From: Vicinamibacteria bacterium
GTDB taxonomy: Bacteria > Acidobacteriota > Vicinamibacteria > Fen-336 > JAGNNV01
Direction: 5' to 3'
Assembly: GCA_031392925.1 (NCBI GenBank)
Contig: JANMVV010000009.1
Span: forward strand, 7,979 to 71,978
Length of the DNA stretch: 64,000 nucleotides
The notes below the pieces were generated by a model, which saw only the letters and a list, made by a program, of their open reading frames with translations, was not told the origin of the DNA and searched no databases. The position numbers and the translations under genes were made by a program. Positions 18,677 to 47,730 of the stretch are shown here, in pieces. Numbering within the stretch: position 1 is the first letter of the stretch; each line of letters begins with the position of its first letter.

Positions 18677-18751
18677 TGGGGCGTCGCCAAGCGGTAAGGC
18701 TCGGGACTTTGAATCCCGCATTCGAAGGTTCGAATCCTTCCGCCCCAGCCA
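18677..18751 (+). tRNA. tRNA-Gln (anticodon TTG)
   Basis: Manually folded cloverleaf. Acceptor TGGGGCG/CGCCCCA. Anticodon stem CGGGA/TCCCG with loop CTTTGAA gives anticodon UUG. T-arm GAAGG-TTCGAAT-CCTTC. Discriminator G then CCA. Coordinates may be off by 1. Confidence 0.85.
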
Positions 18752-24923: not shown

Positions 24924-26075
24924 ATGAGCGAGGCCCCCCTGTCTCACCACCCCGCAACGGCGTGGGTGAATCTCGATCGGATCCGCGACAACTTCAAAGC
25001 CCTCCGCAGCCACGCCGGCGCACGCTCGATCATTCCGGTTCTCAAGGCGAACGGATACGGGCATGGTGCTATCGAAGTGGCTCGCACTCTCGATCCGCTG
25101 GGTGTCTCGATGTTCGCAGTGGCCTACGTGGATGAAGGCGTCGCCTTGCGGCAGGCCGGCATCACGACACCCATCCTGGTCCTGACCGGTTTCGCGCCGG
25201 AACAGGTCGAGGCGCTCTTCAAGTTTCGTCTGACCCCGGCGATTTCCACCCGCGAGCAGGTGGGCGCCCTCCAAGCCCTCCCGTACGACGAGAATCGAGC
25301 GCCTCTCGCCGTGCATGTGAAGGTCGACACCGGGATGTCGCGACTCGGCTTTCGCATTCAGGAGATCGAGCCCGCGATTCACCGGCTCGAAGACGCCGAA
25401 GGGATCCGCATCGAGGGTCTGATGACCCACCTGGCCTCCGCGGACGAGGACGAAATCTTCACCACGAGACAGCTCGACCTCTTCGACGAAGCGATCATGC
25501 GGCTCGAAACCCTGGGAGTGAGGCCCGCGCTCATCCACGCCGCCAACAGCGCGGGGATGGCGTTCACGCGGCAGACCCACACCGCGGTCCGACCCGGCCT
25601 GCTTCTTTACGGAGTGGCCCCGCGGCCCCTCTCCCCCGTGGTCGCGGTGAAGCCGGCCATGGAGTTGCGCGCGCGTGTGGCGCTGGTGAAGAAGGTCAGC
25701 GCGGGCACGCCGGTGAGTTACGGCGGAAGATTCGTGGCGACCAGGGACACTCTCATCGCCACGATCAACGCGGGCTACGCAGACGGCATCCCGAGGACAG
25801 AAACGATGCGGACGAAGGGCGCGCTTAAGCACGGCCAGAACGCGCTGCCCGTCGTGGGAACGGTCTGCATGGATCTCACCATGCTCGACGCCACCGACGC
25901 CTCGAGCCTCACCGCGGGCGACGAAGTGACGGTGTTCGGAGACGCTCCCACCGCGTGGGACCTCGCCGAGTGGGCGGGCACCAACGCCTGGCAGATCCTC
26001 ACCGGCGTGGGCTCCCGCGTGCCCCGGCGGTATACCATGCATGGCGAGGTCGTGGAACCGATCTCAAAGGGCTGA
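24924..26075 (+). CDS. alr: alanine racemase
   Basis: 383 aa. PLP-lysine motif VLKANGYGHG. Conserved dnaB-alr adjacency. Confidence 0.9.
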   Translation: MSEAPLSHHPATAWVNLDRIRDNFKALRSHAGARSIIPVLKANGYGHGAIEVARTLDPLGVSMFAVAYVDEGVALRQAGITTPILVLTGFAPEQVEALFKFRLTPAISTREQVGALQALPYDENRAPLAVHVKVDTGMSRLGFRIQEIEPAIHRLEDAEGIRIEGLMTHLASADEDEIFTTRQLDLFDEAIMRLETLGVRPALIHAANSAGMAFTRQTHTAVRPGLLLYGVAPRPLSPVVAVKPAMELRARVALVKKVSAGTPVSYGGRFVATRDTLIATINAGYADGIPRTETMRTKGALKHGQNALPVVGTVCMDLTMLDATDASSLTAGDEVTVFGDAPTAWDLAEWAGTNAWQILTGVGSRVPRRYTMHGEVVEPISKG

Positions 26076-26104
26076 AGCCACGTCGCATGAGCTGCTCGCG
26101 GGCT

Positions 26105-26306
26105 GGGTAGTGGTGGGAGGGGGTTGCTTCGTCGCAAGTACCAACGGAATGGCTCCTCGCAATGACGTAGGGAAAAACAGCCGATAGTGGGGAAGGCCTG
26201 CGGGCCGACAGCCGGAGACCCTATTGGGTCTTTTTCCCAACGTCATTGCGAGGAGCTATTCCGTTGGCGATGCGACGAAGCAACCCCCTCCCACCACTAC
26301 CAACCC
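26105..26306. repeat. about 200-bp near-perfect long palindrome (arms about 63 bp, spacer about 73 bp); repeat element
   Basis: Left arm 26105-26167 GGGTAGTGGTGGGAGGGGGTTGCTTCG...CCTCGCAATGACG. Its reverse complement recurs at 26241-26306 with about 56/60 identity. The spacer is itself partly self-complementary. A related single arm is at 46004-46063. Confidence 0.6.
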
Positions 26307-26376
26307 ATGTATCGCGGACTTACGCAAGACACTGGCGGCCCGCGATCGCGCGCGAGTTATCGTGTACCCACCGCGC

Positions 26377-28233
26377 ATGCTCCAACCCTCCCGTCTCCTC
26401 CGGCTGAGCCTCGTGGGCGCATCGGCCCTGCTGCTTCAGGCCTGCGGGGAATCGATCGTGAACGAGGGCCGACCCGGAGCCAGCATCATCGTGCCCGCGG
26501 GCGCTCCGGTCGAGGTCATGCGGGCGGCGAAGGAGCTCCAGACCTACGTCTTCAAGACCTCAGGGGCGGAACTCGCGATCCGGACCGACGACGCGCCGCG
26601 AACCGAGCGGGTGGAGATTCGCCTCGCGGTCACTCCGATCGGGATCACCGCGGGTGGAGATCCGACGACCCAGCTCGTGCACCAGGACGGTTACACGATT
26701 CAGAGCACCGGCCGGATGATCACGATCATGGGCGGCTCGCCCCGCGGGACGCTCTATGGCGTCTACGACTTCGTCGAACGTGTGCTCGGCGTGCGCTGGT
26801 TCATGCCCACCGATCTCGGCGAGGACCTCCTCCCCGCGAGGACGATCCTGGTCCCGGAACTGAACGTGGTGAAGAACCCCGCATTCCCGTCGGTGAGCGG
26901 CTTCACCTGGGCGGGAAGCCCGGGAGCCGAGGACTGGGAGCTCCGGTCGCGGGTTCGTGTCGGCAAGGCGGTGAGCTTCGGTCACAACTGGTACAACATC
27001 CACCGGTACTCCAGGGAAACTTTCGACAAGGACCCCGAGATGTTCGCCATGGTCGGGGGCAAGCGCGGGTACAGCAGCCAGTTGTGCACGGGCAACCCCA
27101 ACGTGGTCAAAGTCACGGCGGAGGCGGCTCGCCGCTACTTCACGGAGAATCCCGATGCGCCGCTTTTCTCCATCAGCCCCAACGACGGAAACGGCTGGTG
27201 CGAATGCGACCGGTGCCGGAAGATCGATGAGTTGTACGGCATCACCGACGGCAGCCTCGCCGATCGTTTCGTTCATTATGCCAACGAGGTTCTGAAAGAC
27301 CTCGAAAAATCCCATCCGGACAAGAGGGTCGGGATCTACGCCTACGCCGAGCACACCGTTCCCCCGAAGAAAGCGAAACCGCGACCCAACTACGAGACCG
27401 CGCTCACCCACCAGCCGTGGGCCTTTTGCCACGTGCACGCGATCGAGGATCCGTCATGTCCGGCGAACCGCGAGTTCCTCAGTTACCTCAAAGGCTGGCT
27501 GGCGCTCACGCGACACGTGGGCGTCTACGAGTACTACGGCCACTTCTTCGCCTTCACCCCCTGGCCCATCGTCCATTCGATCCGCCGCGACATTCCCCTC
27601 TTCAAGAAGCTCGGGGTGGAGCGGTTCATCAGCGAGACCCAGCAGAACTGGGCCAACCAGGGGATCAACTTCTACGTGGCCGCAAAACTCGTGGAGGACC
27701 CGGCCCGCGATGTCGACGCCCTCCTCGGCGAGTACTTCTGGCGGTTCTACGGCAAGGCCAGGGATCCGATGCGCCGCTACTTCGATTTGTGGGAGGACGC
27801 GATGCTGCAGACCGCCGCGGCCGGCGATCGCGGCTACGCCTGGCAGTCGATGTTCACACCTGCGCTGGTTTCGGAGGCGGGCCTGCTCCTGAAGCAGGCC
27901 GAGGCCCTCGCCAAGGCCGACACGGTGAAGGTCCAGGCCCGGGTGGCGTTCGCGCGCACGGGCTTCGGCTACACCGAGGCCTACACGCAGATGCTGGAGG
28001 CGACGCGTCGAAACGATCGGGCCGCGGTCCTCTCGTGGTCGGAAGAGGCGCAGAAGCGGATCAAGGCCACCGAAGGCTCGGCCCCGCAGGCCTTCTTCGT
28101 CTCTCTCGCGATCGACCAGACCCGCTATATCGCCAACAACATCCTCGCGCGGGGGGTGCTGCCCTGGGTGGCGCTCAAGCCGGTTCCCTTCCCGACCGCC
28201 ACCAAGACGCCCGGCCCGCCTACCATTCCTTGA
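26377..28233 (+). CDS. DUF4838-like lipoprotein, putative glycoside-hydrolase-like
   Basis: Start trimmed to MLQPSRLLRLSLVGASALLLQACG (lipobox LQAC). Conserved Cys cluster NDGNGWCECDRC. The DUF4838 assignment is from memory and tentative. Confidence 0.5.
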   Translation: MLQPSRLLRLSLVGASALLLQACGESIVNEGRPGASIIVPAGAPVEVMRAAKELQTYVFKTSGAELAIRTDDAPRTERVEIRLAVTPIGITAGGDPTTQLVHQDGYTIQSTGRMITIMGGSPRGTLYGVYDFVERVLGVRWFMPTDLGEDLLPARTILVPELNVVKNPAFPSVSGFTWAGSPGAEDWELRSRVRVGKAVSFGHNWYNIHRYSRETFDKDPEMFAMVGGKRGYSSQLCTGNPNVVKVTAEAARRYFTENPDAPLFSISPNDGNGWCECDRCRKIDELYGITDGSLADRFVHYANEVLKDLEKSHPDKRVGIYAYAEHTVPPKKAKPRPNYETALTHQPWAFCHVHAIEDPSCPANREFLSYLKGWLALTRHVGVYEYYGHFFAFTPWPIVHSIRRDIPLFKKLGVERFISETQQNWANQGINFYVAAKLVEDPARDVDALLGEYFWRFYGKARDPMRRYFDLWEDAMLQTAAAGDRGYAWQSMFTPALVSEAGLLLKQAEALAKADTVKVQARVAFARTGFGYTEAYTQMLEATRRNDRAAVLSWSEEAQKRIKATEGSAPQAFFVSLAIDQTRYIANNILARGVLPWVALKPVPFPTATKTPGPPTIP

Positions 28234-45642: not shown

Positions 45643-45975
45643 GTGAACGAAACGCAAACGGAAAAGCGCCTTTTCACCTACGGGGAGGCCAGAGCCCTCC
45701 TGCCGCGGGTGCAGCAGCTCACGCAGGAAGCTCACGAGAAAGTGGAGCGCCTCCTGGGCGCTTCGACCCAGGTCCCGCAGACCAGGGAGCAGGCGCAGTC
45801 CATCGTGAACGCGTGGGCCGCGGAAATGGGCGCGCTCGGCCTCGACATCAAGGGCCTGTGGCTCGTCGATTTCGACAACGGCAGCGGCTACTACTGCTGG
45901 AAGCACCCCGAACCCTCGCTCGACTACTACCACACGTACGAGGAAGGGTTCTCGGGACGGGTCCGGATTCAGTAG
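45643..45975 (+). CDS. DUF2203-like small protein (tentative)
   Basis: 110 aa. C-terminal YYCWKHPEPSLDYYHTYEEGFSGR is a motif I associate with DUF2203. Family assignment is tentative. Confidence 0.45.
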   Translation: MNETQTEKRLFTYGEARALLPRVQQLTQEAHEKVERLLGASTQVPQTREQAQSIVNAWAAEMGALGLDIKGLWLVDFDNGSGYYCWKHPEPSLDYYHTYEEGFSGRVRIQ

Positions 45976-46003: not shown

Positions 46004-46096
46004 GGTAGGGGTGGCGGGGGTTGCTTCGGGCCATAGCGAAACGGCGGGGGCCCTCGCAATGACTTTCCGGGGGCGCTGCGCGCGCCCTTGAAAGTC
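46004..46096. repeat. partial copy (single arm) of the 26.1 kb palindromic repeat, followed by a short hairpin
   Basis: GGTAGGGGTGGCGGGGGTTGCTTCG...CCTCGCAATGAC shares both terminal motifs with the arm at 26105-26167. It is followed by GACTTTCCGGGGGCGC...GCGCCCTTGAAAGTC, an imperfect inverted repeat. It lies between convergent genes. Confidence 0.5.
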
Positions 46097-46454
46097 AGGG
46101 AACGAAGGGCTCGGGCTCGGCCTTGCCTTTGTGGCAAATGGAGCAGGTGATCACCGCTTCCTTGGTGCGCGGACCGAAGTACTCGGCCTTCTTCGCCTTC
46201 ATGTCCTGAACCAGCTTGATCATCCGGCGGGCGTCGGCCTTGTGCGGACGCTCGTCCTTTTCGTACTGGTCGACCACGTGACAGAACGTGCACTTCACAC
46301 CGAGTTGTTCGGTGAAGCCGTCCATCGTCTTCTTCAACTCGTCCTTCGTGATGTCCTTGGGCAGAACCTGAAGGTTCTTGCCCTCGGCCGCGAAAGCGCT
46401 CGGGGCCAGAAAGCTCGTGGCCAGAAAAAGGGCAGGGATGTATTTGTTTCTCAT
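46095..46454 (-). CDS. dihaem c-type cytochrome, small, secreted
   Basis: Start trimmed to MRNKYIPALFLATSFLAPSAFA (signal). Two CxxCH motifs (CTFCH, CSICH). Confidence 0.7.
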   Translation of the reverse strand: MRNKYIPALFLATSFLAPSAFAAEGKNLQVLPKDITKDELKKTMDGFTEQLGVKCTFCHVVDQYEKDERPHKADARRMIKLVQDMKAKKAEYFGPRTKEAVITCSICHKGKAEPEPFVP

Positions 46455-46488
46455 TTGAATTTTCTTGGAAGGGTCCTGGGTGGAACGT

Positions 46489-47730
46489 TCAGCGGGTGGG
46501 GACGGGCGGCCGGGGCCGGAAGTTTGCCTCGATGTGGGTGGCGAGGGCAAGAACTTCCTCGGCAGACATGCGGCCTCCGAAGGCGGGCATGTCCGGCGCC
46601 TCGCCCTTGGTGATGACTTCGATCATGTCGTTCATGGTGCCCTCGTCCCAGAATGTCTCTCGAGTGAAGTTCTTGGGTTTGCCCTCGAGCTTGGCAATGT
46701 CGGGGCCGTCGCCCTTTCCCGACATGCCGTGGCAGGGGGCGCACTCAACCTTGTAGTCGCGCGCCGCCTTCACCACCAGGCCTTCTTCATACTGCGGCTT
46801 TCTCGGCAGGTCCCGGTCTTCATACAGGGCCAGGCCGCCGAGGCCGAACATAAATCCGAACACGGCGATGACGCCGGCGGCGCGGAGTTTCCTGGAGGTC
46901 CGGATCTCCGGTATCAGCATGAGGGTACCGACGCCGATCGCGGGAAGGAGGGCGCTCTCCACCCATTGGAAGCCGTGGACGTACTTGCCGAACTGGAAGA
47001 GCCACAGGAAGTACCACTCCGGCCGAGGCACGTACTCCGTGTCGGCCGCGGACGCCCTCGGCTCGAGCGGCGCCCTGAAGTTGGCGGCGATGACCCACAC
47101 CGCGATGGCGATGAGACCACAGACCGGAATCAGCCATGGCCCCGATGCCTTCGCGGCCCGATCAAGGCCGTCCTTGAAACCGAAGAGCACCAGGATCACG
47201 AGCACGAGCGGAAGAGCCGCCGCATGAAGCGCGTAGAAGCGCGGAAGGGTCGCGGCTCCGAAAGTCGGGCCGCCGCGAAGCATGTCGGCCTGCAGACCTC
47301 CGACCACCGGGACGGTCTCCACGATGCCGAGGCGAACCGAGGTGCCCCAATACGCCGGCTGGTCCATGGGAAGCACGTAGCCGGTGAAGCAGAAGCCGAT
47401 CATCAGAAGAAGGGCCACGACACTCCGCCGGAACTCCCACTTCCGCTCGCGATGGACCTCGGTGAGGACGCCGGTGATGACCATGAGGAAGGCGGCGACC
47501 ACGACACCCGACGACAGGTAATAGTGCATGGATCGGAGCAGGGCCCCGATCCCTCCCTGTTGCCGGATGTAGAGAACACTCGAGAAGGCCTCGGTCTGGG
47601 AAGGCACGTACGACATGGAGAGCCCGATGCCGCTCCCGATGAGGAGCCCCGCGAACACGAAGGCGCAAAGTGCTGCGGCGCCGTGCAGTCTCGACATCCA
47701 GTCGACGTCCCCCTTCGGCTCGTCCATCAC
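46489..47730 (-). CDS. cytochrome b of a bc-type complex, fused to a C-terminal monohaem cytochrome c domain
   Basis: 413 aa. Multiple TM helices. PEWYFLWLFQ is a cytochrome b/b6 signature. C-terminal CAPCHGMSGKGDGP is a haem c site. Confidence 0.85.
   Translation of the reverse strand: MMDEPKGDVDWMSRLHGAAALCAFVFAGLLIGSGIGLSMSYVPSQTEAFSSVLYIRQQGGIGALLRSMHYYLSSGVVVAAFLMVITGVLTEVHRERKWEFRRSVVALLLMIGFCFTGYVLPMDQPAYWGTSVRLGIVETVPVVGGLQADMLRGGPTFGAATLPRFYALHAAALPLVLVILVLFGFKDGLDRAAKASGPWLIPVCGLIAIAVWVIAANFRAPLEPRASAADTEYVPRPEWYFLWLFQFGKYVHGFQWVESALLPAIGVGTLMLIPEIRTSRKLRAAGVIAVFGFMFGLGGLALYEDRDLPRKPQYEEGLVVKAARDYKVECAPCHGMSGKGDGPDIAKLEGKPKNFTRETFWDEGTMNDMIEVITKGEAPDMPAFGGRMSAEEVLALATHIEANFRPRPPVPTR

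Follow-up and report, generated by a model that had tools for sequence, protein, structure and literature searches.

The DNA analysed here is a stretch of 64,000 nucleotides from a Vicinamibacteria bacterium of the phylum Acidobacteriota (assembly GCA_031392925.1, contig JANMVV010000009.1, positions 7,979 to 71,978 of the forward strand), referred to below as the window. The element under study is a long, near-perfect palindrome at positions 26101-26306, with no gene inside it, which consists of two complete repeat units placed inverted, tail to tail. It lies in the intergenic region between the alanine racemase gene alr (24924-26075, plus strand) and a gene for a DUF4838 lipoprotein-like protein (26377-28233, plus strand), both of which serve as context only. 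The start of the DUF4838 gene was set at ATG 26377 from orthologue alignments and from the genes called on independent contigs. Consequently, the 60-amino-acid open reading frame (ORF) at 26064-26246 on the minus strand and the 347-amino-acid ORF opening at 26187 on the plus strand are artefacts, as a sequence-only reading of this DNA had already held for the first and for the 5' part of the second, and no coding potential was found in the palindrome.

A repeat search resolved the palindrome into inner arms (26141-26187 and 26221-26267; 47 nt, 89% complementary) with 33 nt between them and outer arms (26101-26136 and 26271-26306; 36 nt, 94% complementary), the inner and outer segments being offset by a one-base indel, and blastn aligned the arms over 72 nt at 91.7% identity. 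The manual alignment in the sequence-only reading was therefore right about the inverted arms but understated their extent at 63 bp, the actual repeat being longer. Folding likewise reproduced the hairpin of about 90 bp that had been proposed for either strand, with RNA folding energies of -163.9 and -162.5 kcal/mol for the two strands (z = -16.5 and -19.6 against dinucleotide shuffles) and, as DNA, -112 kcal/mol (z = -15.5). Bar one weak GC-rich palindrome, it is the sole inverted repeat in the window with arms of at least 24 nt lying no more than 400 nt apart.

Repeat units of this kind are about 85-125 bp long and are composed, in order, of a head GGTAGTGG, a G-rich linker, a core of 44-45 nt that reads GGTTGCTTCG-N22/23-CCTCGCAATGAC, and a tail ending in a second (G/A)ATAGTGG-like box. 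In the left unit (26106-26190, plus strand) the head occupies 26106-26113 and is followed by the linker, by the core hairpin motif at 26122-26166 (GGTTGCTTCG-N22-CCTCGCAATGAC) and by a tail made up of GTAGGGAAAAACAGCC plus GATAGTGG at 26183-26190; its CGTC tag is read on the minus strand, as the complement of 26164-26167. The central spacer between the tails (26188-26220, 33 nt) contains a small GC hairpin. The right unit (26221-26301, minus strand) has its core at 26242-26285 and its head as the complement of CCACTACC at 26294-26301. It is preceded on its 5' side by a further 31-position extension of inserted DNA (26307-26337, minus strand) with about 75% identity to the 5' flank of an unrelated unit at L093, one of the comparison loci, which are numbered with the prefix L. 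The CGTC tags of the doublet thus point inward (a tags-inside, or TT, dimer) and its GTAG heads outward, and with GGTAG at its start and CTACC at its end it shows an outer GTAG...CTAC 'double foot'. The two complete tail-to-tail units, the 45-bp CGTC-type hairpin core and the double foot were absent from the sequence-only reading.

A third, solitary unit lies at 46004-46063 on the plus strand (head GGTAGGGG at 46004-46011, core at 46019-46063), between the convergent genes for a DUF2203 protein (45643-45975, plus strand) and a cytochrome c (46095-46550, minus strand). Its usual tail is replaced by a local hairpin, GACTTTC...GAAAGTC (46061-46096), that abuts the cytochrome c stop codon. The recurrence of the arm at this place, first noticed by eye, was confirmed by motif and by spacing, since the solitary unit and the palindrome arm have GGTAG.GGT.GG.GGGGGTTGCTTCG and CCTCGCAATGAC in common at equal distances. 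A 12-mer shared by the copies occurs 3 times in the 64-kb window against 0.53 occurrences expected by chance, and a search allowing two mismatches returned no further credible copies there. Beyond the window, the left unit aligns with units at L006, L034, L093, L099, L119 and L123, and the extended unit was also found in metagenome-assembled genomes (MAGs) labelled Vicinamibacteria (Acidobacteriota). The consensus of this Vicinamibacteria type is ...TGGTAGTGG.GGGAGGGGGTTGCTTCGTCGC....CCA.ACGGACTGGCTCCTCGCAATGACGTGAGGGGGGTAC.GGACGGACAGC.CGAGCCTGGTAGTGGGG, and its units occur singly, in tail-to-tail pairs (L037, L043) and in head-to-head pairs (L041, L062). The window's only Rfam match at gathering score is a tRNA gene at 18677-18748 on the plus strand, at a distance from all three units.

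Occupied and empty alr-DUF4838 sites

We gathered 52 metagenome loci with relatives of alr, and in 13 of them DUF4838 directly follows alr as it does in the window (alr 70-85% identical). The intergenic region is empty at L120, L121, L122, L125, L127 and L133, where the alr stop codon leads through ggcccgcgatc...ttatcgtg to the ATG or the two genes abut. L123 holds one unit, whose left junction is that of the window (gcatgag(c/t)tgct(c/t)gcgggct followed by GGGT(A/T)GTGG), and L119 holds a different tail-to-tail doublet of 240 bp, of a long-tail type, placed exactly at the alr stop codon; its junctions read gGGATAGTGGTGG...CACCACTAGCggcccgcgatc where the empty site of L121 reads cggacgcTAGgggcccgcgatc. 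In the window, the insert reaches to about 26337 and native sequence (ggcccgcgatcgcg...) resumes at 26338.

Because the orthologous sites are empty, hold a single unit or hold a different doublet, the palindrome is regarded as an insertion, and because the site is empty in the more distant relatives (70-77% identity), the empty state is taken to be ancestral. Comparison of these sequences indicates at least two independent insertions between alr and DUF4838. The insert of L119 is flanked on both sides by TAG (or TA) when compared with L121, but this possible duplication is ambiguous, since the GGTAGTGG head of the unit itself contains TAG; at the window copy no target-site duplication was seen.

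The native DNA just past the insert begins with a short GC palindrome, GCCCGCGATCGCGCGC (containing GCGATCGC), at 26338-26353, which is conserved in relatives without the insert. It is followed by a TTATCGTG box at 26357-26364, found 12-17 nt upstream of the DUF4838 ATG in the window and in all relatives checked (L119-L130), and this box may serve a short-leader or leaderless transcript as a -10-like promoter element. The insertion point of the palindrome lies upstream of the box.

Distribution and fold of the core

Genomes were scanned for the exact core pattern, with one genome per species, and the pattern was found in at least 113 genome stretches. According to the record titles, the carriers belong to at least 12 bacterial phyla, together with uncultured tailed-phage contigs; the bacterial groups are Acidobacteriota, Chloroflexota, Bacteroidota, Ignavibacteriota, Planctomycetota, Gemmatimonadota, Pseudomonadota, Actinomycetota, Melainabacteria, three lineages of the candidate phyla radiation (CPR), FCPU426 and Rifleibacterium. 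The small repeat family of the sequence-only reading is thus far too narrow a description. The core is strongly conserved across phyla and in phages, and it is among the most widely distributed short repeats in this analysis. Around this near-invariant core the flanks differ by lineage, and include the Vicinamibacteria type, an FCPU426 type that has TATTTAAACTGR on its upstream side and an Acidimicrobiia type whose spacer is TAGTCCGTGAC...GTCACGGACTA. The core was absent from the plasmid collection.

The core folds into a 5-bp stem (GTTGC/GCAAT), a conserved internal bubble with TTCG(TC) opposite (TC)CTC, pyrimidine on one strand and purine on the other strand, and a variable inner hairpin. 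A terminal stem of at least 4 bp is present in the variable region of 44% of copies versus 16% of shuffled sequences, and the mean folding energy is -6.4 versus -3.2 kcal/mol. The total length of the core ranges from 26 to 60 nt, and minimal cores of 26 nt, for example GATTGCTTCGCTTCGCTCGCAATGAC, are frequent in phage contigs. Read on the complementary strand, which bears the tag, the core is (C/T)GTC-ATTGC-GAGGAGC-hairpin-GCGACGAA-GCAA(C/T)-C-Y-C, where, among the 207 distinct copies in the matches listed, GTC is preceded by C in 57% and by T in 34%.

Three side observations concern the core itself. The tagged strand of minimal cores (L172:5562-5587 and L178:10532-10557) contains GCGAAGC, which is the sequence of an unusually stable DNA mini-hairpin; its presence is consistent with a role of the minimal core as folded single-stranded DNA. 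The subfamily with the upstream TATTTAAACTGR box, found in FCPU426 and other MAGs (L011, L018, L025, L038, L069, L070, L073, L077, L085, L090, L091, L095, L102, L103, L110, L116 and L118), has an inner hairpin whose CTATTCG loop is conserved and whose stem shows many compensatory changes; the subfamily appears more constrained than other copies and could be a distinct structured element. Core half-sites are amplified in tandem at L022, L027, L092, L109 and L013, for example as CCTCGCAATGAC repeats with 10-12 nt spacers or as a run of three 5' boxes and then two 3' boxes, as though the ends had slipped or been used again and again.

Core copies are intergenic across loci. Among the matches listed, 36 bacterial copies lie sense and 38 antisense to genes, and convergent contexts outnumber divergent ones by 36 to 19. 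Copies no more than 500 bp apart were counted as neighbouring pairs; 65 such pairs are present among the same matches, 37 with tags outside (HH), 18 with tags inside (TT) and 10 direct, so that inverted doublets are in excess (55 versus 10). Many pairs are heterodimers in which one partner has the inner hairpin and the other is minimal, and in several pairs the spacers have complementary ends. At L112 the copies form an alternating array with spacers of 38 nt and 25 nt in turn.

A scan of IMG/VR with a slightly relaxed core pattern found the core in at least 120 viral contigs. The genes adjoining these copies include those for major head and portal proteins, and the contigs are therefore considered genuine tailed-phage genomes; in a cultured-phage collection the full-length core occurred in only three records, all of them uncultured faecal phages. 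Phage contigs carry up to 8 copies in 10 kb, on one strand throughout (example loci, within L171-L290, are L181:3339-12744, L253:2397-10278 and L195:135-6161), and contigs with at least three copies mostly have them on a single strand (3/3 in eight contigs; 5/5, 7/7 and 8/8 in one contig each). Only about half of the viral contigs have this favoured strand as their coding strand, and the two orientations relative to gene direction are about equal (38 versus 31). With motif regions masked, the single-copy forward strand fell on the G-rich strand in 65 of 83 viral contigs (p = 2e-7), and on the G-rich strand in 37 of 44 clusters after related contigs were collapsed (p = 5e-6); the window's own skew is too small to use. 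In replication-coupled single-strand elements such as IS608, bias follows strand composition and not transcription (PMC6006769), and the phage strand bias is, by this analogy, suggestive of replication-coupled single-strand mobility. In some phage contigs the motif stands about 20-30 nt upstream of start codons in sense orientation, and in some phages the core is embedded in a longer intergenic cassette that is repeated immediately ahead of start codons.

Relationship to known repeats and enzymes

Repetitive extragenic palindromes (REPs) fall into two superfamilies according to their unpaired tag, GTAG or CGTC (Di Nocera, De Gregorio and Rocco 2013, BMC Genomics 14:522; PMC3733652). The CGTC REPs, among them Neisseria dRS3/NIME and Rickettsia RPE-4/RPE-6, have a CGTC, TGTC or CCTC tag, a perfect stem of 8-9 bp that opens with A-T pairs, a loop of 4-5 nt and a CCA-like tail; tags-outside dimers predominate, heterodimers are frequent, spacers are structured, and the repeats are known from five phyla without an associated transposase (PMC3733652). 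The peptides listed there for intragenic CGTC REPs have AMT or GHD as their last residues, corresponding to ...ATGAC, as in the present core (PMC3733652).

The present core agrees with these repeats in its unpaired terminal tag, CGTC or TGTC; both palindrome units read CGTCATTGCG at the tag, and the solitary copy reads AGTC. Its stem always starts with ATTGC on the 5' side, the 3' side being GCAAT in copies of the GATTGC type, to which most viral copies belong, and GCAAC in copies of the GGTTGC type, which include all three window copies and in which the first pair is A/C. It further resembles the CGTC REPs in its intergenic position and multiple copies in several phyla, the predominance of HH dimers, the heterodimers, the spacers with complementary ends, and the lack of a dedicated adjoining transposase in about 2.2 Mb of DNA. 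Its short, C-rich tail runs C (99%), C/T, C (68%) and matches CCA at the first position alone. In the Vicinamibacteria-type unit, lineage-specific flanks of about 40-80 nt with a GTAG head are added to the core, and the taxonomic range of the core is much wider, phage contigs included. Since tag, dimers, the lack of an enzyme and, in part of the copies, the A-T start fit while the size rule and the tail differ, the core is placed outside the four published families, and we class it as a new, composite variant within the CGTC-tagged REP superfamily.

The doublet shares several features with the REPs, bacterial interspersed mosaic elements (BIMEs) and REP doublets forming hairpins (REPINs) of Enterobacteria and Pseudomonas, which are mobilised by REP-associated tyrosine transposases (RAYTs; TnpA-REP, HUH Y1): they too are short extragenic palindromes in inverted doublets that form one long hairpin, they form alternating arrays as at L112, and they are located at gene 3' ends. 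The GGTAG...CTACC ends of the doublet recall double-foot REPs, and the present heads resemble the start GTAGGGG(C/T)GG of REPs flanking subclass 2.4 RAYT genes (PMC6006769). Unlike in REPINs, GTAG in single units precedes a G-rich tract without a complement and is not at the hairpin foot, and no RAYT gene flanked by units was seen in the window or the loci searched; the core is also absent from the published table of REPs adjoining RAYT genes (PMC6006769). Classical REPs are lineage-specific, whereas the sequence of the present core is common across phyla.

The ends of IS200/IS605 elements and palindrome-associated transposable elements (PATEs) are imperfect hairpins recognised as single-stranded DNA, as the present core would be, and the G-rich-strand bias of phage copies resembles the lagging-strand-template bias of IS608/ISDra2, but TnpA and TnpB are lacking, the hairpins are inverted and not direct, and there is no defined pair of left and right ends. 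An integron attC site was rejected, as the hairpin base GTTGC...GCAAC or ATTGC...GCAAT has its GTT...AAC order opposite to RYYYAAC...GTTRRRY, and resemblance to a K-turn or a known ribozyme was rejected by eye.

The search for a mobilising enzyme covered the window, 1.12 Mb of genome and metagenome loci and 1.08 Mb of viral loci. With ten real sequences from the 2013 supplement (RAYT, TIRYT and IS200) as Y1 queries, no Y1 homologue was detected in the window or in the approximately 2.2 Mb of loci. When the ORFs around the motif were clustered, with radii of 400 bp and 8 kb for genome loci and of 300 bp for viral loci, no protein family emerged as a shared neighbour, the only 'families' being translations of the motif itself. 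A literature search with sequence strings and spurious peptides returned only primers and unrelated terms. We know of no means of spreading described for CGTC-tagged REPs since their description in 2013.

Two candidate partners were rejected. At L081 (CPR) the core lies 35 nt upstream of a degenerate GIY-YIG gene, but L031 and L038 show no such link, and in 21 unbiased Vicinamibacteria-type loci an operon leading from GIY-YIG to ABC-F is conserved without the motif. There, a small YhbQ-like GIY-YIG gene lies directly upstream of an ABC-F ATPase gene and overlaps it (L291-L311 and L031:4379-6688; Vicinamibacteria-like), and the pair appears to be a stable two-gene operon. Some motif clusters have genes for four-helix-bundle proteins ('23S IVS protein') nearby, but the repeats that bracket these genes are of another kind. 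These '23S rRNA intervening-sequence protein'-like genes of Bacteroidota (L057:6136-6808, L057:2634-3205 and L086:966-1433) each stand between inverted arrays of short tandem repeats (AGAGATTAGGGATC..., AGTCCGAAAG..., AAGACAAAAG...), and gene and brackets together form a different, possibly mobile, gene cassette.

Interpretation and rival explanations

We interpret the palindrome, with a probability of about three in four, as a REPIN/BIME-like non-autonomous mobile doublet that was inserted inverted between the alr stop codon and the next promoter region. The sequence-only reading had listed a mobile repeat of this general kind beside a structured small RNA and a large bidirectional terminator, and it is the first option that is supported, by the multi-copy family, the excess of inverted doublets, the lack of gene-strand bias and the presence/absence polymorphism. 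The units would move in single-stranded form, as DNA hairpins that a structure-specific nuclease or transposase acting in trans cuts and rejoins, the only precedent being the action of HUH/Y1 RAYT enzymes on GTAG REPs; as no linked transposase or nuclease gene was found, this mobilisation step is purely inferred. Once inserted, the hairpin of about 90 bp would lie at the 3' end of the alr transcript, where, by analogy with other REPs, it could act as a barrier to 3' exonucleases, cause RNA polymerase to pause or terminate, or be a target of RNase III.

Several observations weigh against this interpretation. Only three units were seen within the 64-kb window, and the window, the 1.12 Mb of loci and the 1.08 Mb of viral DNA contained no motif-linked transposase or nuclease gene. 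The core departs from the CGTC REPs in its 5-bp stem, its conserved bubble of 5x6 nt (GAGGA / GACGAA on the tagged strand) and its variable inner hairpin, and the window doublet has the rarer tags-inside (TT) arrangement. The trend of strand against skew in bacterial 8-kb loci has the same direction as in phages but is weak and non-significant. Presence and absence at the alr site could in principle include deletions, although the empty outgroups (70-77%) argue for insertion.

An improbable alternative is a classical miniature inverted-repeat transposable element (MITE), a deletion derivative of a DDE-type insertion sequence (IS) with terminal inverted repeats that moves by cut and paste with target-site duplication. 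The whole element does look like a pair of perfect terminal inverted repeats, it shares with bacterial MITEs such as Correia/NEMIS and Nezha a non-coding length of about 100-250 bp, an intergenic position and variability among relatives, and the TAG (or TA) that brackets the L119 insert in comparison with L121 could be a duplication. Its module, however, is a hairpin unit that is also found singly, in direct pairs and in alternating arrays, and the conserved part across phyla is the internal hairpin core while the termini vary by lineage. Neither an IS with these ends nor a transposase, and thus no parent IS, was found in about 2.2 Mb of flanking DNA, and a clear target-site duplication is wanting, the TAG of L119 falling within the GGTAGTGG head and the window copy having none.

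Just as improbable is a hairpin selected in place, without mobility, primarily as a (bidirectional) terminator or as a stabiliser of mRNA 3' ends. The position of the palindrome at the 3' end of alr, that of the solitary copy between convergent genes and the surplus of convergent over divergent intergenic contexts (36 versus 19) would suit such a role, and REPs do stabilise mRNA 3' ends (PMC3733652). The palindrome does not qualify as a canonical terminator: on both strands the hairpin lacks a T-run after it, and a scan for terminators gave no terminator-like site either at 25700-26700 or at the second copy. Moreover, close relatives have the same gene pair without any hairpin, and it is the core sequence itself, not merely any hairpin, that recurs in unrelated genomes. 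Any role as terminator or stabiliser may be secondary to the insertion of the doublet.

The option of a structured non-coding RNA, either a small RNA or a cis-regulatory element with the conserved core as its motif, is slightly more improbable still. Conserved boxes that look single-stranded around a variable hairpin, with its excess of stems of at least 4 bp (44% versus 16% shuffled), and the sense motifs upstream of phage start codons speak for it, but orientations are near equal in bacteria (36 versus 38) and in phages (38 versus 31), inverted doublets predominate, the genes next to the copies are not related to one another, and the element is missing from orthologous sites. No Rfam family matched the element: at gathering score the window gave only the tRNA, under permissive settings the palindrome matched only generic long-hairpin miRNA models far below threshold, and in 18 further loci nothing was found at the motif. 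The small RNA of the sequence-only reading is accordingly left unsupported.

A chimeric inverted duplication produced by assembly can be dismissed: four of five metagenome contigs from this organism stop within the palindrome, as is expected of a repeat, but the independently assembled contig L001 spans all of it at 99.9% identity without gaps, and L119 and L123 carry homologous units at the same site.

The mobile doublet that we favour is ordinary in its role, and is notable for the extreme breadth and conservation of its core, for the presence and strand bias of that core in phages, and for the missing enzyme. REP-type repeats shape the genomes of bacteria: they form mRNA ends, serve as sites for gyrase and IHF and as targets of IS elements, and act as rearrangement hot spots and assembly breakpoints. 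At the alr locus, the element accounts for the spurious ORF calls and the broken contigs, and it offers, in an Acidobacteriota-like lineage, a composite CGTC-type unit with a clean insertion polymorphism. It is conceivable, though on balance we doubt it, that the core is the cis-site of some single-strand-DNA system common to bacteria of a dozen phyla and their phages. If so, a structure-specific nuclease or transposase would be at work, or else a factor of replication or repair, and orphan CGTC-type REPs would be an active, horizontally spreading class whose choice of strand follows replication, and not decayed relics. Together, the polymorphism, the near-invariant core in phyla and phages and the phage strand bias make the factor that recognises or moves these hairpins directly testable.

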